NCBI GenBank assembly: GCA_043784785.1
Contig: JAYVXY010000132.1
Coordinates: forward strand, 2,931 to 66,930
Reading direction: 5' to 3'
Length of the DNA stretch: 64,000 nucleotides
Source of the DNA: Aestuariivirga sp.
GTDB lineage: Bacteria > Pseudomonadota > Alphaproteobacteria > Rhizobiales > Aestuariivirgaceae
Below are positions 36,826 to 59,290 of the stretch, one piece after another (positions within the stretch are counted from its first letter, which is position 1; every line of letters begins with the position of its first letter). The notes below the pieces were generated by a model. It ran no database searches. It had not been told where the DNA came from and saw only the letters and a program-made list of their open reading frames with translations. The position numbers and the translations under genes were made by a program.

Positions 36826-36826
36826 T

Positions 36827-41122: not shown

Positions 41123-41175
41123 GGCATAATTTCCTTTAGGTGCTCATCGGCCAAGAGTGCCACTGACCATAAAGT

Positions 41176-41205: not shown

Positions 41206-41224
41206 TTTTATGGGTTAGAGCATC

Positions 41225-41992
41225 ATGCAGATCATGGATGAACTGATCATGGAGCCGCGCGAAGGATGGGTACGCCTGACCCTGAACCGCCCTTCTGTGC
41301 GCAATGCGCTGAATACTGCACTTCTTGCCATTTTGGCTGATCGGCTTGATGGCCTGGCCGCTGATCCTGAATGTCGGGCTGTACTGATGTGTGGCGCCGG
41401 CGGGAACTTTGCGGCAGGGGCCGATATTGGTGAAATCGAAAACAAGACCAGTGCTGAAGGGGCTGTTGACCCTCGCAAGGCTCTTTGGTCGCGAATTAGG
41501 GCCTTTCCCAAACCTTTGGTGGCAGCGGTGGACGGGTTTTGCCTCGGCGGCGGTTTTGAGCTGGCCTTGATGGCTGATTTTATTGTGATCGGTGGTGATG
41601 CAAAGCTGGGTCTGCCAGAAACCAATCTGGGCCTGATCCCAGGTGCGGGCGGCGGCCAACGCTTGATGGCTCTTGTTGGCCGCGCACGCACGATGCGCAT
41701 GGTGCTGACGGGCGAGATTATTGACGCAGAAACCGCAGAAGCATGGGGCATTGCGGCTTGGCGGATGGAGGGTTCGGCGCTGCCTGAAGCCGAGGCTTTA
41801 TGTGCCAGACTGGCGCGCCGCGCGCCGCTGGCTCTGGTGGCAGCTAAGAAGGCTATTATCGCCGGCGAAGAATCTGCCCTTGCTTTTGCTGGTGAGCGAA
41901 AGGCTTTCGAAGCTTTGCTCGACAGTGCTGATAAGGATGAAGGCATTGCCGCTTTCAAGGCCAGGCGCAAGCCGGAGTTCAAGGGGCAATGA
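41225..41992 (+). CDS. Enoyl-CoA hydratase (PaaF-like)
   Basis: FAAGADI, GFCLGGGFE, PETNLGLIPGAGGGQRL. Confidence 0.9.
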   Translation: MQIMDELIMEPREGWVRLTLNRPSVRNALNTALLAILADRLDGLAADPECRAVLMCGAGGNFAAGADIGEIENKTSAEGAVDPRKALWSRIRAFPKPLVAAVDGFCLGGGFELALMADFIVIGGDAKLGLPETNLGLIPGAGGGQRLMALVGRARTMRMVLTGEIIDAETAEAWGIAAWRMEGSALPEAEALCARLARRAPLALVAAKKAIIAGEESALAFAGERKAFEALLDSADKDEGIAAFKARRKPEFKGQ

Positions 41993-44294: not shown

Positions 44295-45091
44295 GCCTGC
44301 AACCAGTTCTCGTCAGGTTCCGGCAGGGGAATAGCGGCAATGAGAGCTTTGGTGAAATCGCTTTTGGGCGCGCGGAATGTTTCAGCGGTTTCGCCTGCTT
44401 CTACCACTTCACCAGAGCGCATGATGATGATGCGATCACAAATATGACGCACCACGGATAGGTCATGACTGATAAAGGCCAGCGACAAACCAAACTCGGA
44501 GCGAAGGCCCTTGAGCAAATCCAGAACCTGAGCCTGCGTTGAAACATCAAGGCCCGAGACAATTTCGTCGGCCACCACAAAATCTGGTTTCAGCGCAATG
44601 GCGCGGGCTATACCCACACGTTGGCGCTGTCCACCGGAAAGCTGATGTGGATAACGTTGCAATGCCGAGCTGGGCAGGCCAACGCGATCCAAAATAGACG
44701 CGAGTGTCTTTTCCCCAGCTTCAAGTCCATGAAGCTGCATGGCACCCTTTAGTATTCTACCGACAGTGTGGCGCGGGTTGAGCGAGGATTGAGGATCCTG
44801 AAATATCATCTGCATCCGGCGGCGCAGGGGCTTCATTTGGGCATGCGGCAGATGGGTGATGTCTGTGCCGTCAAAACTCAGGTGGCCTTCAGTCGGTTCA
44901 TAGAGCCTGAGAAGCGTGCGGCCCAGCGAGGTTTTGCCTGATCCTGATTCTCCGACTATCCCTACCGTCTCGCCCCGCGCCACGCTGATTGAAACATTTT
45001 TGAGAATGCGCAATGTCCGGCGCTTGCCGAACAACACATGATGGCCCATGTCGGGCACGTCGAGGCACAGGTTTTTGGCTTCAATCAACAT
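44291..45091 (-). CDS. Peptide/nickel-type ABC ATPase (DppF-like)
   Basis: GESGSGKT, FQDPQSSLNP, LSGGQRQR. Confidence 0.93.
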   Translation of the reverse strand: MLIEAKNLCLDVPDMGHHVLFGKRRTLRILKNVSISVARGETVGIVGESGSGKTSLGRTLLRLYEPTEGHLSFDGTDITHLPHAQMKPLRRRMQMIFQDPQSSLNPRHTVGRILKGAMQLHGLEAGEKTLASILDRVGLPSSALQRYPHQLSGGQRQRVGIARAIALKPDFVVADEIVSGLDVSTQAQVLDLLKGLRSEFGLSLAFISHDLSVVRHICDRIIIMRSGEVVEAGETAETFRAPKSDFTKALIAAIPLPEPDENWLQA

Positions 45092-45936
45092 CAGGCCGAA
45101 ATCTCCCGCTTCAATTGTGCGATCAAAGATTCTGGCACCGGTTTCAAACTTTGCTCTGGGCGATCATAGCGCGGGTTGGCCGCGAGCAGGGCCTTGGTAT
45201 AGGCGTGGACGGGATTGCGCAGAACATCAGCAGTGTTGCCCTGCTCCATGACTTTGCCACCATAGAGCACCGTCATGCGATCACAGATTTGTGCGACCAC
45301 GCCTAGGTCATGGGTGACGAAGAGAAGTGTCGTTCCATGATTGCGCTGCAGCTGTCGTATGAGGCGCAGCACTTGTTTTTGCACCGTCACATCAAGTGCT
45401 GTTGTCGGCTCATCGGCGATGATCACTTGCGGGTTAAGCGAAAAGGCTTGGGCGATCAACACACGCTGGCGCATGCCGCCTGAAAGTTCATGCGGATAGC
45501 TTTTTAGAACGCGTTGTGGATCACGGATGTGAACATCGTTCAAAAGGTCCAATGCCCGATCAAAGGCGGCGGCGCGGGTAAGCCCCGCCCGCAGGCGAAG
45601 ACCATCTGTCAATTGGTCACCAATGCGGCGCGAGGGATTGAGGGAGGTCAGCGGGTCTTGCGGGATCAAGGCAATGCGAACGCCCAGCAATTCGCGCCTG
45701 CGCGCCGGGGTAAGGCTGAGGAGGTTTTCATCCTCAAACAGAATTTCGCCATTGGTGATTTGAATGGCATCAGGCAGAATGCCGAGAACCGCTTTGGCGA
45801 TGGTTGACTTTCCCGCACCACTTTCGCCGACCAGTGCCATGGCTTCGCCTGTATTCACGGTGAGTGAAACATCGCGCAAGATCGGGCCGATGCCGGAAGA
45901 GGCCGAGAGGTGGCGGATGTTAATGACCGGGCTCAT
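45091..45936 (-). CDS. Peptide/nickel-type ABC ATPase (DppD-like)
   Basis: GESGAGKS, LSGGMRQR, DEPTTALD; start ATG 45936 overlaps the permease stop. Confidence 0.93.
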   Translation of the reverse strand: MSPVINIRHLSASSGIGPILRDVSLTVNTGEAMALVGESGAGKSTIAKAVLGILPDAIQITNGEILFEDENLLSLTPARRRELLGVRIALIPQDPLTSLNPSRRIGDQLTDGLRLRAGLTRAAAFDRALDLLNDVHIRDPQRVLKSYPHELSGGMRQRVLIAQAFSLNPQVIIADEPTTALDVTVQKQVLRLIRQLQRNHGTTLLFVTHDLGVVAQICDRMTVLYGGKVMEQGNTADVLRNPVHAYTKALLAANPRYDRPEQSLKPVPESLIAQLKREISA

Positions 45937-46748
45937 CGTTTCAACACAGGATCGAGCCATTGGCGCAACCCATCTCCCAACTGATTGAAGGCCAGCACAG
46001 TGAGGAACAAAGCTCCAAGCGGAAAAACCAAAACCCACCACGCTTGATAGATGATCTGCCGTCCCTCGGCGATCATGCCGCCCCAGGTCGGCGTGTCAGT
46101 CGAAACAGAGAGGCCAACGTAAGACAAGATTGCCTCAACAATTACGGCAATGCCCATTTCAAGTGACAAGAGTACCAATACGACAGGCAAGACATTCGGC
46201 AAGATTTCGCGGAACAGAATGGCGCCGCGGCCCATGCCGATGGCCGTTGCGGCTTCGACATATTCGAGCTTGGCCTGTTGTTGAGCCTCAGCGCGGACAA
46301 CGCGGGCAAAGCGGGTCCAGTCAATCACTACAATAGCAACGATGACCGAGTGAAGGCCTGAGCCCAGTACTGCTACGAGCAGAATGGACAGCAACACCGG
46401 CGGAAATGCCATCCAGATATCAATCAGGCGTGAAATAACCACCTCCCACCAGCCGCCTAAATAACCGGCCAGCAGACCCAGCATTGTTCCGAGCAGGCCT
46501 GCCAAAATACTGGCCACGAAGGCCACCGTCAGCGCGATGCGACTTGCATAAATCAGGCGGGACAGCACATCGCGGCCGAGGCTATCGGTTCCAAGATAAT
46601 GGCCGGGCTCCTGCATCGGTGGGGCCGTTGCTGTCAGCAGGTCTTGTTCCAGGGGATTGAAGGGGGCCAGCCAATAGGCAAAAAATGCAGCAATAAGCAA
46701 AACCAAGATGAAGCCGCCACCGAGTGTTATGCGCAAATCCCTAAGCAT
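45933..46748 (-). CDS. Dpp-type ABC permease (DppC-like)
   Basis: HYLGTDSLGRDVLSRL, ARVVRAE, PTWGGMI. Confidence 0.93.
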   Translation of the reverse strand: MLRDLRITLGGGFILVLLIAAFFAYWLAPFNPLEQDLLTATAPPMQEPGHYLGTDSLGRDVLSRLIYASRIALTVAFVASILAGLLGTMLGLLAGYLGGWWEVVISRLIDIWMAFPPVLLSILLVAVLGSGLHSVIVAIVVIDWTRFARVVRAEAQQQAKLEYVEAATAIGMGRGAILFREILPNVLPVVLVLLSLEMGIAVIVEAILSYVGLSVSTDTPTWGGMIAEGRQIIYQAWWVLVFPLGALFLTVLAFNQLGDGLRQWLDPVLKR

Positions 46749-47748
46749 GGCGCAGCCTCGGGTTCAGCCATGCTGTCATGGTATCAACAATCATGTTCAC
46801 CAGAATAAAAAGTGCGCCAAAGGTGAGAACCAAGCCTTGGATCAATGGCAGATCACGGTTGATTACTGCGTCGATGGCAAGGTTGCCAATGCCGGGATAA
46901 GAGAAGATGCGCTCGGTTATGACTGTGCCACCAATCAGGAATGTGAACTGCACTCCGGTCAGCGCCAAGGCAGGCATGGCGGCATTGCGCAAGGCTTCCT
47001 GCAACAGAATACGCAAGTTCGAAAGACCCTTGATGCGCGCCAGCACAATATAGTCCTGTACCATCACATCCATCATCGCATTTTTGAGAACCCGGCCGAT
47101 CACGGCTGCAAGCGGAAACGACATGGTAAGGGCTGGCAACATCATGTGCTTCAACACATCCCAGACAAATCCGAAATGGCCGCGCAGCAGGCCTTCGACA
47201 ATGTAAAATTGGGTATAGAGTTCAGCGTCGATCGAGGGATCGCTGCGCCCCGATATCGGCAGAATTGGCAGAACCACACCAAGCACCAGTACAAAGGTGA
47301 GGCCCCAGATAAAATCTGGCACCGCCAGCATCAGGCCGTTGAAGTTGTCAATGAATTTTTCCAGTGCTGTACCGCGCCAGGCAGTTGAAACAAGAGCGAT
47401 ACATGTGCCCCAGACAACAGCAAGGCAGAGTGCGAAAATCGCCAGTTCAAGTGTTGCCGGCAAGCGCTGGAGAATGACGGTCAGGACATTTTGCTTCAAA
47501 GAAATCGACGTGCCAAAATTGCCCAGCAGCACCTGGCCGAACCATACCAGGAACTGCTGGTAGATTGGCAGATCAAGCCCATAATGGGCGCGAAGGGCTG
47601 CAATGTCTGCGACCGTGGCACCGGGCGAAATCATCATGGCAATGGGATCGCCCGGCACCACGCGCACCAGCACAAACACAATCACCATCACACCCAAAAG
47701 GGTGATGATGGCGGAAACGGCGCGCGAGATGATCAGTTTAATCGACAT
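46741..47748 (-). CDS. Dpp-type ABC permease (DppB-like)
   Basis: PGDP, RLPATLEL, ARIKGL, TERIFSYPGIG, RDLPLIQG. Confidence 0.93.
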   Translation of the reverse strand: MSIKLIISRAVSAIITLLGVMVIVFVLVRVVPGDPIAMMISPGATVADIAALRAHYGLDLPIYQQFLVWFGQVLLGNFGTSISLKQNVLTVILQRLPATLELAIFALCLAVVWGTCIALVSTAWRGTALEKFIDNFNGLMLAVPDFIWGLTFVLVLGVVLPILPISGRSDPSIDAELYTQFYIVEGLLRGHFGFVWDVLKHMMLPALTMSFPLAAVIGRVLKNAMMDVMVQDYIVLARIKGLSNLRILLQEALRNAAMPALALTGVQFTFLIGGTVITERIFSYPGIGNLAIDAVINRDLPLIQGLVLTFGALFILVNMIVDTMTAWLNPRLRHA

Positions 47749-47756
47749 GATAAGTT

Positions 47757-47783
47757 AGCCTCTCCGACAGGGCCGGAGAGGCT
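47757..47783. other. Intercistronic stem-loop after the binding-protein gene (probable mRNA-stabilising or attenuating hairpin)
   Basis: Perfect 10-bp stem AGCCTCTCCG / CGGAGAGGCT with 7-nt loop. Confidence 0.6.
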
Positions 47784-47804
47784 TTTCCTTGCATAGTGTA
47801 TAAG

Positions 47805-49337
47805 TTAGGCCTTCGACATTTCGAAGGGTTCAGGCGAGCCTGCAATGTTTGGCACGACCTTGATCGATTTCTTAAACAGGATCGGCTGTTGGTATTGCAC
47901 CAACGGAATAACATAGCCCTGTTCAGCAATATATTTATCAACGGCTTTCCAGCCAGCGATGCGTTTAGCCTCGTCAGCTTCGCCCCACAACGGGCCGATC
48001 TTGTCATCCAGATCCTTGGCTTTCCAGGCGGAATGCGGACTTGGGCCGAACATGGCAAAGCCTGTGGAAGTTGTTGGATCACCGATGGCGTTGCCCCAGT
48101 TATAGAAGGCGGCTGGAGCAAGCTTGTGAGCAAAGCGCAGCTCATAATGTTTGGCCACTTCGTAAACTTCGATTTCAGCTTCAATGCCCACCTTGCGCCA
48201 CATTCCTACAATGGCCTGCACCATTTCATAATCCTTGGGCTTCAAACCACGTGTGGTTTGGATTTTGAACTTGGCTGGCTTTTCAGTGCTAAAACCAGAA
48301 GCCTTGAGCAGCTCCTTCGCCTTAGCTGGATCATGTGGCACTTTGATTGATGCGTCGAAGGCGGCATATTGTGGCGCTTCGAGGGTATCGATTGGCGTTG
48401 CATAGCCCTTCAAAAGCTTACTGACGATAGCTTTCTTATCGATGGCATAATGGGCGGCGAGACGCACATTCTTGTCATCCATAATTGTGCCATTGGTCAG
48501 GAAGATCATGCCGATGTCAGACACTGGTGTAACCGCGCTGCCAAGACCTTTCTTGGTTTTCAGGCGATCAAATTCTTCGAATGGAACATCGACCGTGACA
48601 TCTGATGAACCCGATTCGATTTCGGCCACGCGGCTTGTGGCATCTGGCACGAATTTGAATATGACGGTGTTGAAGGCTGGCTTTCCGCCCCAATAATTTG
48701 GATTGGCCTTGAGGCGCACAAAGGCGTTGCGTTCAAACTGATCGACCATATAGGGGCCGGTGCCGATGGGTTTGGCTTCAAAGCCTTCAGCTTTGACTTT
48801 TTCATAATAGGCCTTTGGCATTACATAACCAGTGAGGAAAGCCATCCATTTGAATAGGGTTGGCTCAAAAGAAACAACATCAGCGGTGATCTTGTTGCCG
48901 TCCACCTTGAAATTGTTGATTTTGCTCCAGATGAAGGAAATTGGATTGCCACCATCCTTGGCACCAGCGCGCGTCAATGACCAAACTATGTCGTCAGGTG
49001 TCAAGGCCGAACCATCATGCCATTTCACGCCATCGCGCACGGTCATGTGGACTTGCTTCTTGTCGTCGCTCCAACCCCATTCAGTCAGCAGGCCTGGCTG
49101 GAATTCGAGATTTGGCTTTTGGCCGATAAATTGATCAAAGACTGAACGATAGATCGCTTGAATAGTTGGATTCACCGACGATAAGCCGGTCGTTGGATCC
49201 CATGATGGCAGATTAACGTTGAAAGCGATTGTTACGGTGTCGCCTTCTGCCATTGCTGAGCTGATGGTCAGCCCGTTGCCCAAGAACAGGCCAGCGGAAG
49301 CTAGCTTCATGATCTGGCGCCTTGAAAGATTGGTCAT
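47805..49337 (-). CDS. Family-5 ABC solute-binding protein with Tat-type signal
   Basis: MTNLSRRQIMKL twin-arginine leader; VRDGVKWHDG, PIGTGPY; start ATG 49337. Confidence 0.92.
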   Translation of the reverse strand: MTNLSRRQIMKLASAGLFLGNGLTISSAMAEGDTVTIAFNVNLPSWDPTTGLSSVNPTIQAIYRSVFDQFIGQKPNLEFQPGLLTEWGWSDDKKQVHMTVRDGVKWHDGSALTPDDIVWSLTRAGAKDGGNPISFIWSKINNFKVDGNKITADVVSFEPTLFKWMAFLTGYVMPKAYYEKVKAEGFEAKPIGTGPYMVDQFERNAFVRLKANPNYWGGKPAFNTVIFKFVPDATSRVAEIESGSSDVTVDVPFEEFDRLKTKKGLGSAVTPVSDIGMIFLTNGTIMDDKNVRLAAHYAIDKKAIVSKLLKGYATPIDTLEAPQYAAFDASIKVPHDPAKAKELLKASGFSTEKPAKFKIQTTRGLKPKDYEMVQAIVGMWRKVGIEAEIEVYEVAKHYELRFAHKLAPAAFYNWGNAIGDPTTSTGFAMFGPSPHSAWKAKDLDDKIGPLWGEADEAKRIAGWKAVDKYIAEQGYVIPLVQYQQPILFKKSIKVVPNIAGSPEPFEMSKA

Positions 49338-49610
49338 TTGTTTCTCCCTGATTGCCTGCGCTTGGCTCGCGCCGGATTGTTTCACATATCAAACACATTT
49401 TGAGAAACATTCAAGTGCATTTTTTTTGATTTCGTCTGAATATGACGTTGCCCTTACCGAATTTCGTGCGGCACTGCACCATAAGACGGATATTACTTGA
49501 TCAAATGCATAGAATGAGCAAGAGTTTGGTTGGTTTCATTTGCTGTCATTGACGATGGTACAAGACTATTATATGATTTTGCATGTAATTATGAGCACAA
49601 GGTAAGACCC

Positions 49611-51773
49611 ATGGCAGAACGTTCATTCGCGAGAGAAGTGGAAGATTTGAGGCTTGGCGATGGCGATGAATTTCGCGGTGAGGGTATTCTGGCAATTACC
49701 AAGGCGCTGCTGCAATCAGGCGTGAGTTATGTTGGAGGCTATCAGGGTTCTCCCATCTCACATTTGATGGATGTGCTGGCTGATGCTTCTGATTATATGG
49801 CAGAACTTGGTGTGCATTTTGAAACATCTGCTTCGGAAGCCACAGCGGCGGCAATGCTATCAGCATCCGTCATGTATCCCATCAGAGGTGCTGTCACATG
49901 GAAATCAACGGCGGGCACCAATGTAGCCAGTGATGCGTTATCGAACCTCTCATCGGGCGGCGTGAATGGCGGGGCGGTCATCATTATCGGTGAGGACTAT
50001 GGCGAAGGTTCCTCAATTATGCAGGAACGCAGCCATGCCTTTGCGATGAAGTCACAAATCTGGCTGGCTGATCCGCGGCCTGAACTTCCGACCATGGTGC
50101 GCATGGTGGAAAAATCTTTCGAGCTGTCAGAAGCTTCAAACACGCCAGTGATGGTTGAAGTGCGCATTCGGGCCTGCCATGTGCATGGGCGTTTCAAAAC
50201 CAAAGACAATGTGAAGCCGCCCTACACGTTGAAGCAGGCTTTGGAAAACCCGGTGCGCGACATCAATCGCATCGTGTTGCCACCCGCCTCCTTTGTGCAT
50301 GAGAAGCTGAAAATCGAAAAGCGCTGGCCAGCGGCGGTTGAATTTATCAAGGCCAATAGACTGAATGAATTTTTCGGACCAGATACAGGCGATGTCGGCA
50401 TTATCATGCAAGGCGGCATGTATAATGGCGTAATCCGTGGGCTGCAGCAGCTTGGCCTTTCAGATGCTTATGGCAAAAGCAAGGTTCCGCTTTATGTGAT
50501 GAACTTCACCTATCCGATGATCGACGATGAAATCATCACATTCTGCCAAGGCAAAAAGGCGATCGTGATTGTCGAAGAGGGCCAGCCTGAATTTCTCGAG
50601 CAAGCGATCAACACATTACTGCGGCGGCGCGATATTCAAACCCGCATCAGCGGCAAGGATGTGTTTCCGCTGGCTGGTGAATATACAGCACAAGTATTGC
50701 AGAAGGGTTTGCTTGATTTCATTGCAAAACATGCCCCCCGCCTATTGGGCAATCGCCCGCCTTTGCCCGATGCTTCTGCTGTTCTGAACTCTGCTGAAGT
50801 GAAAGCCTTGGCCACCCAAGTTCCGCCGCGGCCACCCGGCTTCTGCACCGGCTGCCCGGAACGTCCAATTTTTGCCGCGATGAAATTGGTCGAGAAGGAA
50901 TTGGGCGAGCATCACATCTCGGCTGATATTGGCTGCCATTTATTTTCCATTTTGCCGCCCTTCAATATTGGGGCCACCACAATGGGCTATGGCTTAGGGC
51001 CCGCTGCTGCATCAGCTTTCAATGTGAAAGCCGATAAGAAGGTGATCTCGGTCATGGGCGATGGTGGGTTTTGGCACAATGGCCTTGCCTCATCCGTTGG
51101 CAACGCCGTGTTCAACAAGCATGATGGCGTGATGTTGATTGTGGATAATTATTATTCAGCGGCAACAGGTGGCCAAGACATCATGTCATCGCGTGCCTTT
51201 AACAAGAAACGCCAAACCAATAATGCCATTACCGATGCCGTAAAAGGCATTGGCGCAAAATGGGTGCGCCAGATTGACCGCACCTATGATGTAGCCAAAA
51301 TGCGCGACACATTGCGCGAAGCACTGACATCTAAAGTGCCTGGCCCCAAGATCATCGTGGCTTCATCCGAATGCATGCTCAATAAGCAACGCCGGGTAAA
51401 GCCGCTTATGGACAAGGCCGAGAAGAATGGTGAGCGCGTGGTGAAGCAGCGCTTTGGTGTGGATGAAGACATTTGCACGGGCGATCATGCCTGCATCAGG
51501 CTTTCCGGTTGCCCTTCACTTTCAGTGAAGAACACCAATGATCCATTGCGCGATGATCCGGTGGCCAGCATTGATAATTCTTGCGTGGCTTGCGGCAATT
51601 GCGGCGATGTGGCTGATGCCGCCATATTATGCCCATCCTTCTACCGCGCCGATATTATTCGCAATGCGAGTGGTTGGGAGCGCTTGAAGATGAATGTGCG
51701 GCGTTCGGTCATCTCATTCTTGCAAAGGCGACGTGAGAGCGGCCGTGTGATGTTTAACCGAGTGAGTGCATGA
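49611..51773 (+). CDS. iorA: Indolepyruvate:ferredoxin oxidoreductase-family alpha subunit (TPP, 4Fe-4S)
   Basis: GYQGSP, FCTGCPERP, DIGCH, TPP motif GDGGFWHNG..DN, C-terminal Cys clusters (CTGDHAC..C; CVACGNC..CP). Confidence 0.92.
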   Translation: MAERSFAREVEDLRLGDGDEFRGEGILAITKALLQSGVSYVGGYQGSPISHLMDVLADASDYMAELGVHFETSASEATAAAMLSASVMYPIRGAVTWKSTAGTNVASDALSNLSSGGVNGGAVIIIGEDYGEGSSIMQERSHAFAMKSQIWLADPRPELPTMVRMVEKSFELSEASNTPVMVEVRIRACHVHGRFKTKDNVKPPYTLKQALENPVRDINRIVLPPASFVHEKLKIEKRWPAAVEFIKANRLNEFFGPDTGDVGIIMQGGMYNGVIRGLQQLGLSDAYGKSKVPLYVMNFTYPMIDDEIITFCQGKKAIVIVEEGQPEFLEQAINTLLRRRDIQTRISGKDVFPLAGEYTAQVLQKGLLDFIAKHAPRLLGNRPPLPDASAVLNSAEVKALATQVPPRPPGFCTGCPERPIFAAMKLVEKELGEHHISADIGCHLFSILPPFNIGATTMGYGLGPAAASAFNVKADKKVISVMGDGGFWHNGLASSVGNAVFNKHDGVMLIVDNYYSAATGGQDIMSSRAFNKKRQTNNAITDAVKGIGAKWVRQIDRTYDVAKMRDTLREALTSKVPGPKIIVASSECMLNKQRRVKPLMDKAEKNGERVVKQRFGVDEDICTGDHACIRLSGCPSLSVKNTNDPLRDDPVASIDNSCVACGNCGDVADAAILCPSFYRADIIRNASGWERLKMNVRRSVISFLQRRRESGRVMFNRVSA

Positions 51774-53302
51774 CTTTGGTTGCCGAACCCAGTCTGGAAA
51801 AACCGCTCACCGTTGCCATTCTCGCCATGGGCGGCCAGGGCGGTGGAGTGTTGGCCGATTGGATTGTCGCGGTCGCCGAGTCCAATGGCTGGTATGCCCA
51901 GTCGACCTCGGTTCCCGGCGTCGCACAACGTACGGGCGCCACGCTTTACTACATTGAAATGCTGCCTCCGCGTGGCGCCATGGCACCGGTTTTGGCCCTC
52001 ATGCCAACGCCAGGCGATGTCGATGTGGTGATCGCTTCGGAACTCATGGAAGCGGGCCGCTCGATTTTGCGCGGGCTTGCAACACCTGATCGCACTGTGT
52101 TGATCACTTCTACTCACCGCGCTTACGCTATTTCCGAAAAAGAAAAACCAGGTGAAGGCATTGGCGATCCGCGCTCTGTGAATGCGGCGGCAGGCATTGC
52201 TGCAAAGCGCGTTATCTCTTTTGATATGGATGACGTGGCGCACCAGAATGGTACGGTGGTTTCATCGCCCATTCTCGGGGCTCTTGCGGGTGCGGGCGTT
52301 TTGCCGTTCTCGCGCGATAGTTTTGAAGCTGTGATCAGTGTCGGTGGCAGAGGTGTTGCGGCATCGCTCAAAGGTTTTGGCGCGGGTTTCGATTTAGCTG
52401 CGGCCAATGAATTACCAGCGGCCCGCATTGCGCCCGAAAAGGTTTTTGAAGCCGTGCCGCAAAGCCTGGGCCATGCCAAGCTTGATATGCTGTTGCCGCG
52501 ATTCAGGGCTTTGCCGGATAGCGTGCAGAGCATGGCGCTGGCCGGGTTTAAGCGCGTGGTTGATTTTCAGGATGTGGCTTATGGCAGCACTTATCTTGAT
52601 CGGCTGGAAACGCTGTACATGGCTGATGTTCAGGCCGGCGGTGCGGCCAAGGCCTTTGCTTTTACAGCAGCAACTGCAAAATATCTGGCCAATGCGATGT
52701 CTTATGATGATGTGATTGGTGTCGCTGATCTTAAAACCCGTTCCAGCCGCTTTGCGCGCATTGCCAGAGAGATGCAGGTTCGAAACAATGAGCCGATTTA
52801 CTTCACTGAGTTCATGCATCCGCGCGCGGAGGAATTGGTGAGTATGTTGCCGGCAAAATTGGGCGTTTGGGTTTCTGTCAGACCCAGCTTAATGGCTTGG
52901 CTGGACCGACGCATCAACAAGGGCCGCAATGTTGAGACGGCGAAGCTCTCAGGCTTCTTGCAGCTCTATGCAATTTCTTCCTTGCGGCGATTTCGGCGCG
53001 GTCTATTGCGCCATAAACGCGAGATGGAGCATGTCGAAATTTGGCTGGCCTTGGCCTTGCGACACTTGCCACAGAATTATGGTTTGGCGCGTGGCATTGT
53101 TTCAACCAGGCGGTTGATCAAGGGCTATTCCGACACCCATGCACGCGGACTTTCAAAATATGACCGTGTGCTATCTGCGGTTCCCGTGTTGGCAAACAGA
53201 GATGATGCCGATATCTGGATGGATCGATTGATTTCAATTGCGTTGAAAGATGAAAATGGCACAGCGCTTGACGGGGCGATCTTGACGCTAAAGTCACTTT
53301 GA
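51770..53302 (+). CDS. iorB: Indolepyruvate oxidoreductase beta-subunit family protein (long form with C-terminal extension)
   Basis: AMGGQGGGVL, SVPGVAQRTGAT, ELMEAGR, MSYDD..VADLK. Confidence 0.9.
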   Translation: MTLVAEPSLEKPLTVAILAMGGQGGGVLADWIVAVAESNGWYAQSTSVPGVAQRTGATLYYIEMLPPRGAMAPVLALMPTPGDVDVVIASELMEAGRSILRGLATPDRTVLITSTHRAYAISEKEKPGEGIGDPRSVNAAAGIAAKRVISFDMDDVAHQNGTVVSSPILGALAGAGVLPFSRDSFEAVISVGGRGVAASLKGFGAGFDLAAANELPAARIAPEKVFEAVPQSLGHAKLDMLLPRFRALPDSVQSMALAGFKRVVDFQDVAYGSTYLDRLETLYMADVQAGGAAKAFAFTAATAKYLANAMSYDDVIGVADLKTRSSRFARIAREMQVRNNEPIYFTEFMHPRAEELVSMLPAKLGVWVSVRPSLMAWLDRRINKGRNVETAKLSGFLQLYAISSLRRFRRGLLRHKREMEHVEIWLALALRHLPQNYGLARGIVSTRRLIKGYSDTHARGLSKYDRVLSAVPVLANRDDADIWMDRLISIALKDENGTALDGAILTLKSL

Positions 53303-53818
53303 TGGATCAGAGTTGTCCAATCTGATATTGCGTAAGACCTTCTGCATTGTCGCCACAAACCGGGTGAATTCATCCTCGCCAATGTCGCGGAACATCTGCT
53401 CGTAATGATTGAACATGATGGGCCAGAATTCGGCAAACGCGTTGCGGCCTTCGGGTGTCAGCTGCACTTCGCGCACGCGCATGTCATTGGCCCGCAAAGC
53501 GCGTTTTACAAAGCCACGCGTTTCAAGATTATCAAGTGTGCGGCTCATGGTGGATTGTTCCGTCACAGTCAGAACTGAAAGCTCGTTGATGTTGAGGCCT
53601 GAGTTGATGCTCAGCACGGCCAGCACGCGCATTTGCGGCGTGGTGAGATTGAACTTGCGCAGCTCGGCCGCGAGGTCGGCGTTCCAGGTGGCTGCGATGC
53701 GATTCATCAAATAGGGCACGAAAAAATTGAGGCCGATTTCTGCAAGTGACGGCATAGAGGTATCGGCTGCGGCCTCACGGTGAAGCACGCCTTGCAGGAA
53801 GTCCATTTTTCCAACCAC
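53294..53818 (-). CDS. MarR-family regulator
   Basis: FVPYLMNR, EQSTMSRTLD.LE..G.V.R..D.R winged helix; start uncertain. Confidence 0.9.
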   Translation of the reverse strand: MVGKMDFLQGVLHREAAADTSMPSLAEIGLNFFVPYLMNRIAATWNADLAAELRKFNLTTPQMRVLAVLSINSGLNINELSVLTVTEQSTMSRTLDNLETRGFVKRALRANDMRVREVQLTPEGRNAFAEFWPIMFNHYEQMFRDIGEDEFTRFVATMQKVLRNIRLDNSDPSK

Positions 53819-55392
53819 TATGTGAGTGCCTCCGCAAGCAAGAAACCAGAACCGCCGCCCAGACCTGCACCGGGATGGGTTGAAGCACCGATGTGATATA
53901 ATCGCTTCACGGATGTTTCGTGATTGGTTGTGCCCCGCAAGGGTCGCCAGAGGAAGAACTGGTCGATCGAGCAGGCACCGCCATAGGGATCGCCGCCGAC
54001 GAGATTGATATTCATGGCCTCAAGATCAGCTGGTGAATAGCAGCGGCGCTTGATGATGGAGGCTTTGAATCCCGTGATGTGTTTGGCAAGGATGGCTTCG
54101 ACACGGTCAGCATAGACTTCACGCAACGCTTCGGTCCACTGGCCATCCTTCGGCACCTTGATCTCGCCTGCAGCATCGCCTTTCACATGGCGCGGCGCTT
54201 CGGGGAGTTGCAGCCACAATATGGCCTTGCCCTCAGGTGCGCGCGAAGGGTCAAAAGCCGTGGGCTGGCCTAAGCAAATGGTGGGCTCCACGGGCAGCAT
54301 GCCACGCTCGGCTTCGTTGACGGCTTTTGAAACACCATCAAGGCCCGAGGTGAAATGGAGCAGCGCAACTTTGGCCAGGTCAGGCGATTTCCACTTGGGC
54401 GGTGCTTTCAAAGCATAATGGATTTGCATATTGCCTTTGCCATGGACAAAGCCTTTGGCCTGCGTCCGCAATGCTTCTGAAGGCTGATGATTTTTCAACA
54501 GGCGGCCATAAAGTTGCGAAGGTGTCATGGAGCAAATCACACCTTGCGCAGCAGAGATTTTTTCACCTGAGGCCAGCATCACACCTGTGGCGCGGCCTGC
54601 ATCATCAACAACCACTTCACTCACGTCAGCACCGGTTCTGATCTCGCCGCCATGATCGTGGATCAATTGCTCGAAGGCTTTCAAAATATTAGCGGCACCG
54701 CCCTTGACGATGGGGGCACCAGCGGCTTCCAAAGCGAAGGCAATAACCTTGGCCATTTGGCCTGAGTAAGCAGATTCAGGCCCCAGCCCCGTATGCAACA
54801 CCCAAGGCGCCATCAAGGCATGGAACAAATCAGACTGATAGTGCGGTTCAAGCCAATGGCGGGCTGGAATGAGGGCTTCGCCAAAAAACGACGAGAGGGC
54901 GCGGGGGCCGCGCTTCCACGCCTCGCGCAACACGGTTTTGGCCATGGCCCAAGACCAGAGCCTGCCACCCAGCAACGCAAACAGGAAAGGCGCATTGGCC
55001 CCCAGCTTGTCCATATCAGCGGCATATTGCTTGCCGTCACCAGCCGCCAGTTTTTCGAATGCTGTTATATTGGCAGCACGGTCTCGTCCGAGTGTGAGGC
55101 TCGAACCATCAGGGCGCAACACACCTGTGGGAATTTCGGGATGAGCGAATTCAAGGCCGCGCTTGGTCAGCTCTGGGGCCAAGGCCGCATAGGCAGGGGA
55201 GAGCAGAAACAACACAAAGGTTGTGGCCATCACATCGTGGGTGAAGCCCGGCACCGTGGCCTCTTGCGTGCAGATGCAACCGCCAATCACATCATTGCGC
55301 TCAAGCAGCAGAACCTTCTTGCCCTTGAGAGCAAGAAGGGAACCCGCTACCAGCGCATTGACTCCACTACCGACGATCACATAATCGGTCAC
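53818..55392 (-). CDS. Phytoene desaturase-like FAD-dependent oxidoreductase (copy 2)
   Basis: VVGSGVNAL, ER...GG, PGFTHD, C-terminal LYHIGASTHPGAGLGGGSG. Confidence 0.9.
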   Translation of the reverse strand: MTDYVIVGSGVNALVAGSLLALKGKKVLLLERNDVIGGCICTQEATVPGFTHDVMATTFVLFLLSPAYAALAPELTKRGLEFAHPEIPTGVLRPDGSSLTLGRDRAANITAFEKLAAGDGKQYAADMDKLGANAPFLFALLGGRLWSWAMAKTVLREAWKRGPRALSSFFGEALIPARHWLEPHYQSDLFHALMAPWVLHTGLGPESAYSGQMAKVIAFALEAAGAPIVKGGAANILKAFEQLIHDHGGEIRTGADVSEVVVDDAGRATGVMLASGEKISAAQGVICSMTPSQLYGRLLKNHQPSEALRTQAKGFVHGKGNMQIHYALKAPPKWKSPDLAKVALLHFTSGLDGVSKAVNEAERGMLPVEPTICLGQPTAFDPSRAPEGKAILWLQLPEAPRHVKGDAAGEIKVPKDGQWTEALREVYADRVEAILAKHITGFKASIIKRRCYSPADLEAMNINLVGGDPYGGACSIDQFFLWRPLRGTTNHETSVKRLYHIGASTHPGAGLGGGSGFLLAEALT

Positions 55393-55404
55393 CGTGGTTA
55401 TGCC

Positions 55405-56232
55405 TTATTTTCCAACAAGAGCTAACACCCGCAAGGGGCTTCCCGTGCCGTTCTTGATTTTTAGCGGAGCTGCAATGATCACAGCGCCTTTGGGCGGCAG
55501 CTTGTCGAGATTGCACAGGCTGGCAAGGCCATAGCGATTAGCTTTGTGCATGAGGTTATGGGCCGGGAATGGTGGGTCCATACCGCCGGCCGAACCAGCA
55601 TCGGTTCCTACAGTTTCCGAACCCCAGCCAATAATGCCGCGCTTCAACAGATAATGAATGGTTTCTGCGGTCGGGCCAGGTGAGTGTGGGCCGTTTTCAT
55701 CGACGTTCAAGAAGGTTTCTTCACTCTCATTGCGCTTATACCAATCGGTGCGCATCACAACCCATGTGCCCTTCTCGATCTTGCCGTGTTGTTCTTCCCA
55801 GGCCTTCACATGCTCGACGGTCAACAGAAAATCTGGATTCTTTTTTACTTGCTTGCTGCAATCGATAACATTCACAGGGGCCACGAAATTCTTGGGCGCA
55901 ATGGTGTCGGTCGAACCATCCTTATAATCCTTGCCGGTGATCCAGTGTTGTGGCGCATCGAAATGCGTTCCCGAATGTTCGCCCAGCTTAAGCCAGTTCC
56001 AAGCCCAGTAAGGGCCCTTGTCATCATAGTGAGAAATGGTGTGGATTTCGATTTTCGGCGTGTTCAGTCCGATGGAGGGCGGCAGCTTGATGAGCGGCGT
56101 GTCAGGGCCCAGCGTGGCGGTCAAATCGATCACCTTCACTTTGCCGGTCAGCAATGCTTCGGCCATGCTGGTAAGTGAATTCTTTTTTGCCGCGATCTTG
56201 CGTACAGGTTTTTTTGCTGCCTTCTTAGCCAT
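55405..56232 (-). CDS. Cyclase-family amidohydrolase, isatin hydrolase-like
   Basis: WAWNWLKLGEHSGTHFDAPQHWITGKDY (HxGTHxDxPxH metal motif), GPHSPGP, GTDAG..GGMDPPFPAH, KIKNGTGSP; closely resembles the Labrenzia isatin hydrolase as I recall it, not searched. Confidence 0.85.
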   Translation of the reverse strand: MAKKAAKKPVRKIAAKKNSLTSMAEALLTGKVKVIDLTATLGPDTPLIKLPPSIGLNTPKIEIHTISHYDDKGPYWAWNWLKLGEHSGTHFDAPQHWITGKDYKDGSTDTIAPKNFVAPVNVIDCSKQVKKNPDFLLTVEHVKAWEEQHGKIEKGTWVVMRTDWYKRNESEETFLNVDENGPHSPGPTAETIHYLLKRGIIGWGSETVGTDAGSAGGMDPPFPAHNLMHKANRYGLASLCNLDKLPPKGAVIIAAPLKIKNGTGSPLRVLALVGK

Positions 56233-56388
56233 GGTTTCCTCGCCTTGTTGTTTTATGCCCAGCTGGTTCGCTGCCTGAGCTTTTGTGAGAGACTATTGCA
56301 ATCCCATGAATTTTCAAGTTTCAATTTCAACTAAATCCACTGAATTTTGACATGACAGCCGCTATTGCATGATTTTGCAAGGACTGGA

Positions 56389-57972
56389 TCAGACCCCGGC
56401 TAACATCTTGCCCAACAAATAACCAGAGCCGGCACCGGTGCCCGCCCCCGGCCAAGTTGCTGCACCGCACATGTACAGCTTGCCGATCGGCATTTTATAA
56501 CGCGAATAGCCGGCCACGGGGCGGAAAAGGAAATTCTGATCGAGATGATGGCTGCCGGAGAGATTGTCACCGCCAATGAGACAGGGATTTTCGCTTTCCA
56601 AATCATCTGGTGAGAAGACAGCGCGACCGATGATTTTGGATCTTGTGCCCGGTGCATAGGTTTCAATGATATCAAGCACACGCTCGGCATAGGTTTCTTT
56701 GATTGCGCTCCACTCCAGGCCAGCAATAACATTGGCCGCATCGCCTTTGATGTGCTTTGGCAGAACGCGCACTTGCACCCACAACACATGTTTTCCGGCT
56801 GGTGCACGGCTTGGATCAATGGCGGTGGGCTGGCCCACTACCAGTACGGGGGCTTTGGGCAGCAGGCCATCCATGGCTTGGGTGTAGGCCGATGTCATAT
56901 AATCAAATGAAGGTGCAATATGCACATAGGCGAATTTGCTCAATGCCTCACCCGCCTTCCAATCCAGTGGGCTATTCAGTGCCAGATGCAGCATCATGGT
57001 GCCGGGGCCGGGGCGGAAGTTTTTGAATTTTGCATCAAGGCCAACATTGCCGCTGCCACTTGGCAGAAGCCGGTTGAACAAGACCCAAGGCGTGACATTG
57101 GCGATGACGGCCTTGCGCGCAGTGATGCGCTGGCCACCAGCTAAAATCACACCATCTGCTTTGCCCTGCCCGCTGATGATTTCCGTCACGGGTGTTGAAA
57201 GGTGCAATTCACCGCCCAGCTCTTTAAGATAGGCGGTCATGGCCATGATCATCGTATCGGCACCGCCCTTTCCAATGACCATGCCAAAAGCTTGGTTGGC
57301 CATGGATTCAAGGTAAGGAAAAAGAGCCCCGCCCGCGATATCAGGCGCAAAATCAAGATGCATGCCCCAAGCGCCAAGCGTGGCTTTGACTTTTGGGTTT
57401 TCGAAACTGGCATCCAACCAAGTGCGCGGCGAAGACAGCAGAAACCGCAGCATATCAAATACCCAAGCCGTGCCCATTTTACGCCACGCCTGCCACACCA
57501 CCTTTGCAGCCGCCCAAGAGGGCATGGTGTTGCCGAGCAGGCCAAAGATGTGAGGCGCGTCATTACCAAATTGCTGCAACATGCGCTGCCAGCTTTCGGC
57601 ATCATGCGGGTTGATTGCATGAAGCCGGTCCAATGTCTGCGCAAGCGTTTTTGACACGCCAAACCAGGTTCCGTCATTGAAGACCGAGGCAAAGCAGTCC
57701 TCTGCCGGGGCAAAGGCCAGACCATGGCGGCCCAATGCCTCGCCATATTCTTTCAAGAAGGGTGAGCCTGCAAACATGGAAAGATTCATAGCGCAGAGGT
57801 CGTGGCGGAAACCTGGCAGAGTCAACGCGCGGGTTTTGATTGCGCCACCTGCTTCAGCATTGTCTTCATAGACGGCCACCCGCCAGCCGCGTTTGGCCAG
57901 ATGAATGGCAGCGGCCAAACCATTATGTCCGGCACCGACAATTACGGCATCATAGGTTTTTGGCTCTGTCAT
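56389..57972 (-). CDS. Phytoene desaturase-like FAD-dependent oxidoreductase (copy 1)
   Basis: IVGAGHNGL, PGFRHD, C-terminal LYMCGAATWPGAGTGAGSG; start 57972 or 57987. Confidence 0.9.
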   Translation of the reverse strand: MTEPKTYDAVIVGAGHNGLAAAIHLAKRGWRVAVYEDNAEAGGAIKTRALTLPGFRHDLCAMNLSMFAGSPFLKEYGEALGRHGLAFAPAEDCFASVFNDGTWFGVSKTLAQTLDRLHAINPHDAESWQRMLQQFGNDAPHIFGLLGNTMPSWAAAKVVWQAWRKMGTAWVFDMLRFLLSSPRTWLDASFENPKVKATLGAWGMHLDFAPDIAGGALFPYLESMANQAFGMVIGKGGADTMIMAMTAYLKELGGELHLSTPVTEIISGQGKADGVILAGGQRITARKAVIANVTPWVLFNRLLPSGSGNVGLDAKFKNFRPGPGTMMLHLALNSPLDWKAGEALSKFAYVHIAPSFDYMTSAYTQAMDGLLPKAPVLVVGQPTAIDPSRAPAGKHVLWVQVRVLPKHIKGDAANVIAGLEWSAIKETYAERVLDIIETYAPGTRSKIIGRAVFSPDDLESENPCLIGGDNLSGSHHLDQNFLFRPVAGYSRYKMPIGKLYMCGAATWPGAGTGAGSGYLLGKMLAGV

Positions 57973-58190
57973 GGCAAACTCCGGCATGGCGAACTCCTGC
58001 CTTTTTGTTCTTTAGCAACGCGGTCATCAGCCGTAAACGTCTATCGCATTTGCATGCATATGCATATTTCAACTTTCTATTTCTGATAAATTCAGACATT
58101 TCCTCGCATTACTCTTGTGCAAACAGATTTTTCATATTTAAAATAAATTGCCGATAGGCGCTCATAATAAAACATGGAGGAACGACACAA

Positions 58191-58778
58191 ATGAAACGGA
58201 CGTTAATTGCATTGCTGGCTTTGACTGGCCTCACCCAAACCGCTCTTGCTGGCATGCCCGGCATGAGAGGCCATGACCACACCGGCTTTACCGTGCCGGA
58301 TATGAACCAGGCTGTTACCTTCTTTACCGATATCGTTGGCTGCGAGAAGGCCATGTCATTCGGCCCGTTTAAAGATGATAAGGGAACTTTTATGACAGAT
58401 GCGCTGGGCGTTGATGCCCGCGCCGTAATCGTTGAAATCACCCAAATGCGCTGTGGCGTCGGTTCGAATATCGAACTGTTCAAATACACGGCACCAGATC
58501 AAAAAGTGATCATTCAGAAAAACAGCGACATCGGCGCTTACCATATCGCCTTCTATGTCGACGACGTAAAGGCCGTGAAAGTTTTTTTCGACTCAAAAGG
58601 TGTAGCGTCTAGAATGGGGCCAATTCCGGTGGATCAGGGCCCTGCCGCCGGTCAGACAATTCTTTATTTTCAAGCTCCTTGGGGCCAACAACTTGAGGCC
58701 ATCAGCTATCCCAAAGGCATGGCCTATGAAAAAGACAGCAAAGTTATTTTGTGGTCGCCCAAAGACCCTGCAAAATAG
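58191..58778 (+). CDS. VOC (glyoxalase/bleomycin-resistance) family protein with predicted signal peptide
   Basis: MKRTLIALLALTGLTQTALA leader; DHTGFTVPD, IELFKY, YHIAFYVDD, YFQAPWG..LE; AGGA-type RBS upstream. Confidence 0.88.
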   Translation: MKRTLIALLALTGLTQTALAGMPGMRGHDHTGFTVPDMNQAVTFFTDIVGCEKAMSFGPFKDDKGTFMTDALGVDARAVIVEITQMRCGVGSNIELFKYTAPDQKVIIQKNSDIGAYHIAFYVDDVKAVKVFFDSKGVASRMGPIPVDQGPAAGQTILYFQAPWGQQLEAISYPKGMAYEKDSKVILWSPKDPAK

Positions 58779-58876: not shown

Positions 58877-59290
58877 ATGGCAGTGAGCTTCACGACGGAT
58901 CGCATGTTGAATTTCGGTGATTGCGATATTTCCGGTACGGCCTATTATCCATCTTATCTCAACATACTCAATGGCGTGATCGAGGAGTTCTGGACCAAGA
59001 TCGGATTTCCCTGGCATGAAATCATCTGGAAGGAACGCTGGGGCACCCCCACAGTCCACCTCACATGCAATTTCTCAAAGCCATCCTATTTCGGAGATAG
59101 GCTGACATTCGGACTGACAGTGACCAAAGTTGGCCGATCATCTGTCACCATCGAGCATACCGTGTATTGTGGCGAAGAAGCGCGCTGGTCTGGGCACTAG
59201 GTTTTGGCTGCAAGCTGGCTTGATAAACATACATCCATGCCTTGGCCCGAGGATGTGAAAGCAAAGCTCATGAGTTTTTTGCCGCAATAG
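58877..59290 (+). pseudogene. 4HBT-like acyl-CoA thioesterase interrupted by an in-frame TAG at 59198-59200
   Basis: FGDCDISGTAYYPSY hotdog motif, KVGRSS; the frame continues after TAG as VLAASWLDKHTSMPWPEDVKAKL to a stop at 59290. Confidence 0.8.

Follow-up and report, generated by a model that had tools for sequence, protein, structure and literature searches.

A 64,000-nucleotide stretch of Aestuariivirga sp. DNA (contig JAYVXY010000132.1; this whole stretch is called the window, and coordinates below count from its first letter) carries an isatin hydrolase gene between the genes of two paralogous CrtI/CrtO-like flavoproteins, here named FlvA and FlvB. On balance, we favor the reading that these diverged paralogs, as soluble dehydrogenases that bind FAD and have the CrtI/CrtO fold, were recruited to a gene island that would funnel oxidized indoles via isatin to 2-aminobenzoyl-CoA. 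That the Flv genes belong to an indole/isatin pathway is highly probable, and FlvB may well form isatin from dioxindole (3-hydroxyindolin-2-one); the oxidation of oxindole to dioxindole by FlvA is a tentative and rather doubtful assignment. For decades, isatin has figured in reports as an intermediate when bacteria break down indole and auxin, and the gene for its formation is not known. Judged from its sequence and gene neighborhoods, FlvB is the best candidate yet for the enzyme that makes it.

Two paralogous flavoproteins flank an isatin hydrolase gene

The core consists of three minus-strand genes: FlvB (53818-55392, 524 amino acids, GTG start), a gene for a Mn-dependent isatin hydrolase of the cyclase family (IH; 55405-56232, 275 amino acids, Pfam Cyclase), and FlvA (56389-57987, 532 amino acids). 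FlvA and FlvB, both CrtI/CrtO-like flavin adenine dinucleotide (FAD) oxidoreductases, align end to end in BLASTP with 36% identity over 522 residues and 6 gaps (E = 4e-105), a similarity far beyond chance that marks them as genuine paralogs. This confirms the arrangement given in a preliminary description of the DNA, namely 2 co-oriented CrtI-like paralogs on either side of an isatin-hydrolase-like gene, and all of the motifs quoted there (PGFRHD/PGFTHD, VGQPTAIDPSRAP/LGQPTAFDPSRAP, GAATWPGAG/GASTHPGAG, and GAGHNG/GSGVNA) are found in the translations.

The middle gene product is 64% identical, without gaps over 259 amino acids, to isatin hydrolase B of Labrenzia aggregata (PDB 4J0N; E = 5e-121), and it also matches the Ralstonia solanacearum enzyme (5NMP; E = 2e-92) and L. 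aggregata IH-A (5NNA). The metal motif HxGTHxDxPxH is intact, reading HSGTHFDAPQH. Close homology combined with this metal-binding and catalytic motif identifies the gene as encoding a predicted isatin hydrolase.

Several features of the FAD site are shared by the 2 flavoproteins. The acidic β-2 residue, the GG motif, and the C-terminal GxxTxPGxG are invariant in the FlvA and FlvB ortholog groups alike, and because the FAD motifs are conserved in both groups, both proteins should bind FAD. The two also have in common a large number of invariant residues (His, Asp, Arg, and Gln). Decay of the FAD site in FlvB, to which its GSGVNA sequence might have pointed, was ruled out. This GSG(V/I)NA variant is a family trait, since GSGINA is kept in 75 of 95 FlvB orthologs, and the FlvA orthologs vary as well at the last position of GAGHNG, with one third reading GAGHNS.

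FlvA has 2 in-frame ATGs (57960-58000, minus strand) set 15 nt apart, each preceded by a near-identical GGAGTT(C/T)GCC Shine-Dalgarno-like element, an arrangement that resembles a small tandem duplication. Translation from the second ATG (57972) gives 527 amino acids, which matches the length of most homologs, and the second start is favored for this reason.

FlvA and FlvB are relatives but not members of the carotenoid enzyme families

Both proteins are assigned to Amino_oxidase/NAD_binding_8 in Pfam. The top-scoring NCBIfam family for both is the CrtO β-carotene ketolase equivalog (NF045689), which aligns over the full length with 204.3 bits for FlvA (E = 3e-60) and 172.5 bits for FlvB (E = 1e-50), 5- to 6-fold under the curated cut-off of 1000. 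With crtI_fam (TIGR02734), they reach 134.4 and 104 bits, respectively, against a curated cut-off of 238.1. These sub-cut-off scores make them relatives, not members, of the CrtO and CrtI families. The AlphaFold2 models are of high confidence, with pLDDT values of 87 (FlvA) and 86 (FlvB). A Foldseek search with the FlvA model returned CrtD (4REP; TM 0.77/0.84) as the top match along with CrtI (4DGK) and 3KA7, with amine oxidases such as NicA2 ranking after the CrtI-type folds; identity to all of these was 14-18%, and 16-18% to solved CrtI and CrtD.

The Flv proteins have in common with CrtI, CrtD, and CrtO a three-domain FAD fold, here matched by the FlvA model, an N-terminal GxGxxG-type motif, conserved as the Rossmann motif GxGxN[GAS], and the C-terminal GxxTxPGxG motif. 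They differ from CrtI and CrtO in scoring under the family cut-offs, in lacking a carotenoid context, and in having as predicted substrate a small polar heterocycle. In more than 100 loci, the neighbors of the Flv genes are consistently isatin and indole genes rather than carotenoid genes. The claim that the window holds no crtB or crtE stands among the ORFs scanned with Pfam, a set that leaves aside 5 large ORFs (399-8220 and 23374-25636), 3 of which are too long for crtB or crtE. With family scores under threshold and no carotenoid genes (crtB, crtE, or crtY) among the ORFs scanned, a carotenoid function was rejected, in agreement with the preliminary description. The analogy to CrtO drawn there is in keeping with the better score of both proteins on the CrtO than on the CrtI model, which says nothing on mechanism.

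Public annotation of these proteins is generic, either "phytoene desaturase family protein" or "NAD(P)/FAD-dependent oxidoreductase". If the favored reading is true, many proteins carrying such names would have a non-carotenoid function. UniRef names one FlvA homolog (P0109, 68% identical) [quoted passage not shown], and the link to PYROXD2 consists of that single database name.

The island is conserved across two orders and breaks up into modules

Three scans of one-genome-per-species contigs, seeded with FlvA, IH, and FlvB, yielded about 200 loci, mainly from Hyphomicrobiales (Aestuariivirga-like genomes, Mesorhizobium, Rhizobium, Neorhizobium, Martelella, Hoeflea, and Xanthobacteraceae) and Rhodobacterales. 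Well over 100 loci in these 2 orders keep an island composed of an ATP-binding cassette (ABC) importer, an IorAB-like oxidoreductase, an IadR-like MarR regulator, FlvB, IH, FlvA, a VOC protein, and a thioesterase, the last of which is kept in the close relatives of the window. Plasmids of Tritonibacter mobilis, as annotated by PGAP, repeat this layout. Co-occurrence was counted in 60 IH-centered loci with full flanks: both Flv genes are found in 53 of them, IorAB in 54, the family 5 solute-binding protein (SBP5) of the importer in 49, and MarR in 48, while an AbmA-like gene lies within 10 kb of IH in 33 and the VOC gene is part of the cluster in 28. In all 90 loci compared (90/90), the gene that comes directly after IH, in the same orientation, is FlvB; FlvA lies upstream of IH, divergent in 71 of the 90 and co-oriented, as in the window, in the other 19. 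The cluster is widespread in rhizobia, in marine roseobacters, and in a plant pathogen, in all of which indole and auxin are signals.

The same genes also travel in smaller combinations. IH, MarR, and IorAB occur among housekeeping genes without any Flv gene in 3 loci (L060, L091, and L107). In Agrobacterium, FlvA accompanies the SBP5-type ABC importer and the VOC protein at loci that lack FlvB and IH, and Devosia, too, has FlvA but no FlvB. FlvB without FlvA occurs in Ralstonia, Azospirillum, Pseudaminobacter, Rhizobium sp., and Neorhizobium, in the last of these as an IH-FlvB-MarR string with IorAB.

In Agrobacterium larrymoorei (locus L024, 11687-18709), the FlvA and importer module is convergent with a complete molybdenum hydroxylase operon encoding MobA-like and XdhC proteins, the large, FAD, and 2Fe-2S subunits, and a xanthine/uracil-family permease. 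This operon probably serves purine catabolism and was excluded from the evidence; less probably, Mo-dependent hydroxylation of an N-heterocycle could feed FlvA in this organism.

FlvB orthologs recur beside indole-oxygenating enzymes

Genes for FlvB orthologs are repeatedly found right after those of enzymes that attack the pyrrole ring of indole with oxygen. In both Pseudaminobacter soli and a Rhizobium sp., the gene follows those of an AraC regulator, a short-chain dehydrogenase/reductase (SDR), and a styrene/indole-monooxygenase-family protein, the last matching PDB 7Z4X with E = 2e-178. We take 7Z4X to be the Variovorax indole monooxygenase VpIndA1. The same trio of AraC, SDR, and monooxygenase genes abuts FlvA in 2 loci, L088 and L001, of which L001 is the closest relative of the window. 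A plasmid of Azospirillum thermophilum, annotated by PGAP, encodes an AraC regulator, an SDR, a "styrene monooxygenase/indole monooxygenase family protein", a flavin reductase, a transporter, a FlvB ortholog 67% identical to FlvB, and a cyclase, without IorAB. On the megaplasmid of R. solanacearum SL3103, the order is SDR, monooxygenase, flavin reductase, IH, FlvB, a hypothetical protein, AraC, IorA, IorB, a 4HBT thioesterase, and an AbmA-like gene. This FlvB ortholog is 47% identical and its gene starts 4 nt past the IH stop. The IH is the characterized and crystallized RsIH (PDB 5NMP), identical over residues 83-264, so that the candidate for isatin formation sits in clusters that also encode the crystallized isatin hydrolase of R. 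solanacearum.

In the characterized iif/ind/WHOP clusters, IifC and IifD oxidize indole to the 2,3-dihydrodiol, the SDR IifB converts this to 3-hydroxyindolin-2-one, and the cofactor-independent oxygenase IifA turns 3-hydroxyindolin-2-one into anthranilate. The oxygenase-linked loci described here look like iif clusters in which FlvB and IH, often together with IorAB, take the place of IifA. Oxygenase and SDR are present in L001, L088, L147, L168, L205, and L207 with FlvB or FlvA in the IifA position, and no IifA-like gene was found in the annotated Ralstonia and Azospirillum clusters or among the scanned neighbor ORFs of L147 and L168. The proposal made from the sequence alone, that the flavoproteins oxidize oxindole- or dioxindole-like substrates to isatin, gains partial support from this context, which ties the family, and FlvB especially, to oxidized indoles and isatin formation.

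Some of these loci have peculiarities of their own. In L001, an extra bicupin gene (11479-12645, plus strand, 388 amino acids, 2 Cupin_2 domains) that is absent from the window lies between FlvA and IH, and it may represent a ring-cleaving or cofactor-free dioxygenase alternative. In SL3103 (L205; CP022791.1), IH is present at 8180-8970 as 2 overlapping ORFs in different frames (8180-8509 and 8389-8970, the second 100% identical to RsIH) with no coding sequence listed, which reflects either an assembly frameshift error or a pseudogene. The indole/styrene-monooxygenase-family gene of the same locus (6313-7581) is named "alanine-phosphoribitol ligase", as is PDB 9LRQ, although its sequence is close to 7Z4X, and the name looks like a propagated mis-annotation. 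A conjugative plasmid of Agrobacterium tumefaciens (L208; pQ15_94_2, NZ_CP049219.1, 2108-16018) encodes a P450, a ferredoxin and its reductase, Rieske oxygenase α and β subunits, an isochorismatase-like hydrolase, an SDR, a more distant FlvB-type protein (45%), a long MarR (290 amino acids), and a Liv-type ABC transporter. The FlvB-type gene stands behind those of the Rieske pair, the hydrolase, and the SDR and ahead of those of the MarR and the transporter. This cluster looks like an uncharacterized catabolic operon for an auxin or indole derivative.

A proposed route through isatin to 2-aminobenzoyl-CoA

The Flv-IH core of the window is embedded in further genes that the pathway first sketched from the sequence did not contain. 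That sketch proved too narrow, in that IorAB, the MarR regulator, the ABC importer, and a 2-aminobenzoyl-CoA branch were not in it. The MarR-family regulator (53294-53818, minus strand; Pfam MarR) overlaps the FlvB stop with its start. Beside it on the plus strand are genes for an IorA-like α subunit of a thiamine pyrophosphate-dependent 2-oxoacid:acceptor oxidoreductase (49530-51773, with the called gene starting at 49611; TIGR03336, 281 bits, and TPP_enzyme_C) and an IorB-like β subunit (51770-53302; NF006179, 658 bits against a cut-off of 348). Divergent from IorAB is a peptide/nickel/opine-type ABC importer (44291-49385, minus strand; Pfam SBP_bac_5, BPD_transp_1, and ABC_tran) consisting of the SBP5 protein (47805-49385), 2 permeases (46741-47748 and about 45933-46748), and 2 ATPases (45091-46041 and 44291-45091), all on the minus strand. 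The PDB relatives of SBP5 are distant only (DppA, the nearest, with E = 1e-36, AccA, and NikA) and point to no particular ligand.

On the far side of FlvA, a VOC/glyoxalase-fold protein (58191-58778, plus strand; Pfam Glyoxalase_4) is encoded divergently from it, followed by a 4HBT-fold thioesterase (58877-59200, plus strand; Pfam 4HBT). No sequence relative of the VOC protein was found among solved PDB structures. Its N-terminus resembles a typical Sec signal peptide (MKRTLIALLALTGLTQTALAG), and because of this the protein may act in the periplasm on a compound before uptake.

Directly beyond the importer lies a ring-degradation module (35689-44294) with genes for an acyl-CoA dehydrogenase, an enoyl-CoA hydratase, a second MarR regulator, an SDR, and an AbmA-like protein, and then a plus-strand operon (41225-44294) for an enoyl-CoA hydratase, a 3-hydroxyacyl-CoA dehydrogenase, and a thiolase, as assigned by Pfam. 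The AbmA-like ortho-substituted benzoyl-CoA hydroxylase/reductase (38837-41122, minus strand) has 761 amino acids and combines FAD_binding_3 with Oxidored_FMN. It scores 1279.5 bits with NF006101, "salicylyl-CoA 5-hydroxylase/oxidoreductase", above the cut-off of 1078. Such a fusion of an FAD monooxygenase with an old yellow enzyme (OYE)-type reductase is the architecture of 2-aminobenzoyl-CoA monooxygenase/reductase. The ORFs scanned at 25-64 kb of the window included neither an acyl-CoA ligase nor an oxygenase of the Rieske or styrene type.

From homologies, fold, synteny, and a conserved motif, we infer the following steps for FlvA, FlvB, and IorAB. The SBP5-type importer would take up an oxidized indole, on which FlvA would carry out an early oxidation; our guess is that oxindole gives up a hydride and then takes on water to become 3-hydroxyindolin-2-one, a mechanism that has been proposed for CrtO. 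The earlier step is assigned to FlvA because its gene travels with those of the importer and the VOC protein, and its substrate could also be an indoxyl-type isomer or an oxindole acid derived from auxin. FlvB would then oxidize 3-hydroxyindolin-2-one to isatin and hand it to the hydrolase encoded directly upstream, which would open the isatin lactam to give isatinate (2-aminophenylglyoxylate). The proposed Flv chemistry, in which an activated ring CH2 or CHOH becomes C=O, parallels CrtO ketolation.

Isatinate is an arylglyoxylate and thus a 2-oxoacid, and its most plausible fate is oxidative decarboxylation by the IorAB-like enzyme to 2-aminobenzoyl-CoA. This predicted step would explain the IH-MarR-IorAB minimal module, the presence of an AbmA-like gene without an accompanying CoA ligase, and the placement of a thioesterase gene between IorB and the AbmA-like gene in Ralstonia and beside the cluster in the window. 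The 2-aminobenzoyl-CoA could be degraded by the AbmA-like hydroxylase/reductase and the β-oxidation enzymes, or else the thioesterase may convert it to anthranilate. Taken together, a complete isatin branch is indicated, made up of IH, an IorAB-type enzyme, and the 2-aminobenzoyl-CoA pathway, and it gives IorAB/IadAB a proposed function. If true, the route would be a case of a known fold and type of chemistry being put to use on a new class of substrates and in a new pathway.

A more specific form of this proposal, which we regard as unlikely at present, has FlvA and FlvB together turn oxindole by way of dioxindole into isatin, in a CrtO-like "ketolation" that is oxygen-independent and takes the new oxygen atom from water, and has IorAB/IadAB act as an arylglyoxylate (isatinate):acceptor oxidoreductase. 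Were it true, it would supply the missing enzymes of the oxindole/isatin route in denitrifying and anaerobic indole degradation, it would offer by homology the first functional lead for the PYROXD2-like branch (the oxidation of small N-heterocyclic lactams), and IorAB/IadAB would make 2-aminobenzoyl-CoA without a ligase.

Weighing the proposed route against its alternatives

Several observations count against the proposed route. In Brucella and Ochrobactrum, both Flv genes are found together with the importer but with no IH nearby, and in Acidimicrobiia the FlvB and FlvA genes are adjacent (about 50% identity to the window proteins) with only a Liv-type ABC transporter beside them. Four FlvB orthologs (L136, L156, L166, and L187) stand alone with no island or iif-like genes nearby, in high-GC contigs for which ORF clustering gave no interpretable neighbors. 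Dioxindole can be oxidized to isatin spontaneously or via unspecific dehydrogenases, so this step does not strictly call for an enzyme of its own. Small neutral oxindoles would be an unusual cargo for an ABC importer of the peptide/opine type, and the AbmA-like family goes by the curated name salicylyl-CoA 5-hydroxylase rather than 2-aminobenzoyl-CoA monooxygenase. Full-text literature searches found no paper linking this CrtI-like family to isatin or oxindole oxidation.

Among the alternatives, one paralog could act on the indolin-2-one series (oxindole and dioxindole) and the other on the indolin-3-one series (indoxyl and 2-hydroxyindolin-3-one), the two converging on isatin and preventing loss to indigo. 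The adjacency of Flv and indole monooxygenase genes agrees with this, as do the spontaneous dehydration of indole-2,3-dihydrodiol to indoxyl and then indigo and the fact that the next structural neighbors of the fold, amine oxidases such as NicA2, dehydrogenate C-N bonds; yet monooxygenase-linked loci mostly have FlvB only, and FlvA travels with the importer rather than with an oxygenase, which leaves this division of labor improbable. Nearly on a par with it, and slightly less probable still, is a role for the proteins on auxin-derived acids (2-oxindole-3-acetate, dioxindole-3-acetate, and possibly conjugates), which the importer would take up and FlvA and FlvB would oxidize, with isatin released after loss of the side chain and the island representing a lower-pathway variant of the iad locus. 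The window MarR does resemble MarR structures from auxin degradation loci (3CJN, 7KYM, and 7KFO), IotA/IorB and MarR are markers of iad loci, in which indole-3-acetate (IAA) passes via isatin to anthranilate, a FlvB-like gene lies in the A. tumefaciens cluster of Rieske oxygenase, MarR, and Liv-type ABC genes, and the cluster is widespread in rhizobia. On the other hand, no equivalents of IadCDE, the CoA ligase IadF, IadG, or IadJ are present among the window ORFs scanned, 9 Variovorax genes (iadC-K2), in which iadA and iadB are not included, suffice for the conversion of IAA to anthranilate, and the best-defined contexts of FlvB are indole loci rather than IAA loci.

The preliminary description had also considered a heteromer, and an obligate one, with one catalytic and one auxiliary subunit making isatin in a single complex, would account for the joint occurrence of both genes in the great majority of IH-centered loci (53/60), for their adjacency in Acidimicrobiia, and for their joint presence with the importer and without IH in Brucella and Ochrobactrum. 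Each paralog nevertheless occurs without the other, FlvB in Ralstonia, Azospirillum, Pseudaminobacter, Rhizobium sp., and Neorhizobium and FlvA in Agrobacterium and Devosia; in most loci (71/90), the two genes are transcribed divergently, and the FAD motifs are complete in both proteins. The obligate form is therefore unlikely. Less likely again is a function after ring opening, either as an electron outlet that re-oxidizes the iron-sulfur clusters of IorAB or on isatinate and CoA-ester intermediates. It would suit the position of FlvB within the IH-FlvB-MarR-IorAB string and the need of IorAB for an electron acceptor, but IH-MarR-IorAB modules exist without any Flv gene, the Azospirillum FlvB occurs with monooxygenase, SDR, and IH in a cluster that has no IorAB, and we know of no ferredoxin-oxidizing enzyme with a CrtI-like fold. 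Least credible of all is that the 2 genes lie beside the cyclase gene by chance and encode ordinary desaturases or ketolases acting on carotenoids, squalene, or isoprenoids. Such an origin is suggested by the CrtI/CrtD-like fold and by CrtO and crtI_fam as the top families, and it is contradicted by the rounded scores of 204/172 bits against 1000 and 134/104 against 238, by the low identity to solved CrtI and CrtD, by the lack of carotenoid genes among the ORFs scanned, and by a synteny with isatin and indole genes that holds across 2 proteobacterial classes.

Regulation and expression

The best PDB matches of the window MarR are 3CJN from Ruegeria pomeroyi (E = 5e-35) and 7KYM (E = 1e-26). 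The latter belongs to the auxin-locus MarR structures that accompany Conway et al. (2022) and is by inference the Bradyrhizobium japonicum IadR structure, which was solved in that study with 3CJN as the search model. Between FlvA and the VOC gene, the perfect palindrome ATGCATATGCAT (58054-58065) is a candidate MarR operator. Over the unique loci, the 250 nt ahead of FlvA contain TGCAnnTGCA or TATGCATA in 80 of 139 cases and those ahead of IH in 80 of 138, against a background of 1.2%, and neither form of this ATGCAT-centered palindrome was found upstream of FlvB, MarR, or IorB. This distribution fits a single candidate operator controlling FlvA and an IH-FlvB-MarR unit, and the IadR-like MarR would control the FlvA/IH promoter region through the palindrome.

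A search of the intergenic regions of the window for inverted repeats returned only this palindrome and a second repeat at 41163-41218. The second is a 28-nt imperfect inverted repeat with TTTCAAGCT/AGCTTGAAA in the divergent promoter region of the AbmA-like gene and the enoyl-CoA hydratase, 3-hydroxyacyl-CoA dehydrogenase, and thiolase operon, where the second MarR (37636-38091) may use it as an operator.

DNA of the window occurs in sediment metagenomes, and an environmental metatranscriptome contains exact-match contigs inside IorA, FlvB, IH, and FlvA. Because carry-over of DNA is possible, these matches are weak evidence of expression.

Other features of the window

In the sugar ABC operon neighboring the island, an SBP_bac_1 sugar-type binding protein is split into its C- and N-terminal domain halves (33429-34103 and 34229-34696, minus strand) and is probably a frameshifted or interrupted pseudogene. 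Further away (19913-25636, minus strand), a DnaE2-type error-prone polymerase α subunit gene (1162 amino acids) is followed by 2 ORFs of 515 and 268 amino acids in the positions usually taken by imuB and imuA; with the DnaE2-type gene, they would form a candidate mutagenesis cassette.

Comparison with known pathways

Although the island has parts in common with both iif and iad loci, it belongs to neither type. In relatives of the window cluster, one finds the genes for AraC, SDR, indole monooxygenase, and flavin reductase that are known from iif/ind/WHOP clusters, and the product of the iif upper pathway, 3-hydroxyindolin-2-one, is the proposed substrate of FlvB. The window itself differs from iif in having no SMOA-type monooxygenase or SDR of the iif kind and in having instead the ABC importer and FlvA.

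With the iad locus of Variovorax, Bradyrhizobium, and Achromobacter, the window shares the same families of IotA/IorB-type (iadA/iadB) enzymes and an IadR-like MarR. Conway et al. (2022) described iotA/iorB (iadA/iadB) and MarR as marker genes of iad loci, in which IAA passes via isatin to anthranilate. The cyclase-family amidase IadI parallels the cyclase of the window, and the iad route likewise runs from dioxindole to isatin, isatinate, and anthranilate. According to a 2025 preprint, 9 Variovorax genes (iadC-iadK2) suffice to convert IAA to anthranilate; this core includes the Rieske oxygenase IadDE with its reductase, the CoA ligase IadF, the thiolase IadG, and the dehydrogenases IadH and IadJ, and IadA and IadB are not among it. 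The window ORFs scanned contain no Rieske IadCDE, IadF, IadG, IadH, or IadJ, and the Flv genes are not among the iad genes with assigned roles in the literature read on iad. The presence of a full iad or iif locus in the window was ruled out, as the ORFs scanned include no Rieske oxygenase, CoA ligase, or SMOA gene. Unlike iad, the window continues into a CoA-dependent ring-degradation module.

This module most resembles the aerobic 2-aminobenzoyl-CoA (abm) pathway of Azoarcus evansii and salicylyl-CoA 5-hydroxylase (NF006101) by virtue of its FAD monooxygenase-OYE fusion of 761 amino acids, and the enoyl-CoA hydratases, dehydrogenases, thiolase, and MarR beside the fusion gene of the window add to the likeness. 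The two differ at the point of entry, since the window gene has no 2-aminobenzoate-CoA ligase beside it and the thioester is instead proposed to arise from the action of IorAB on isatinate.

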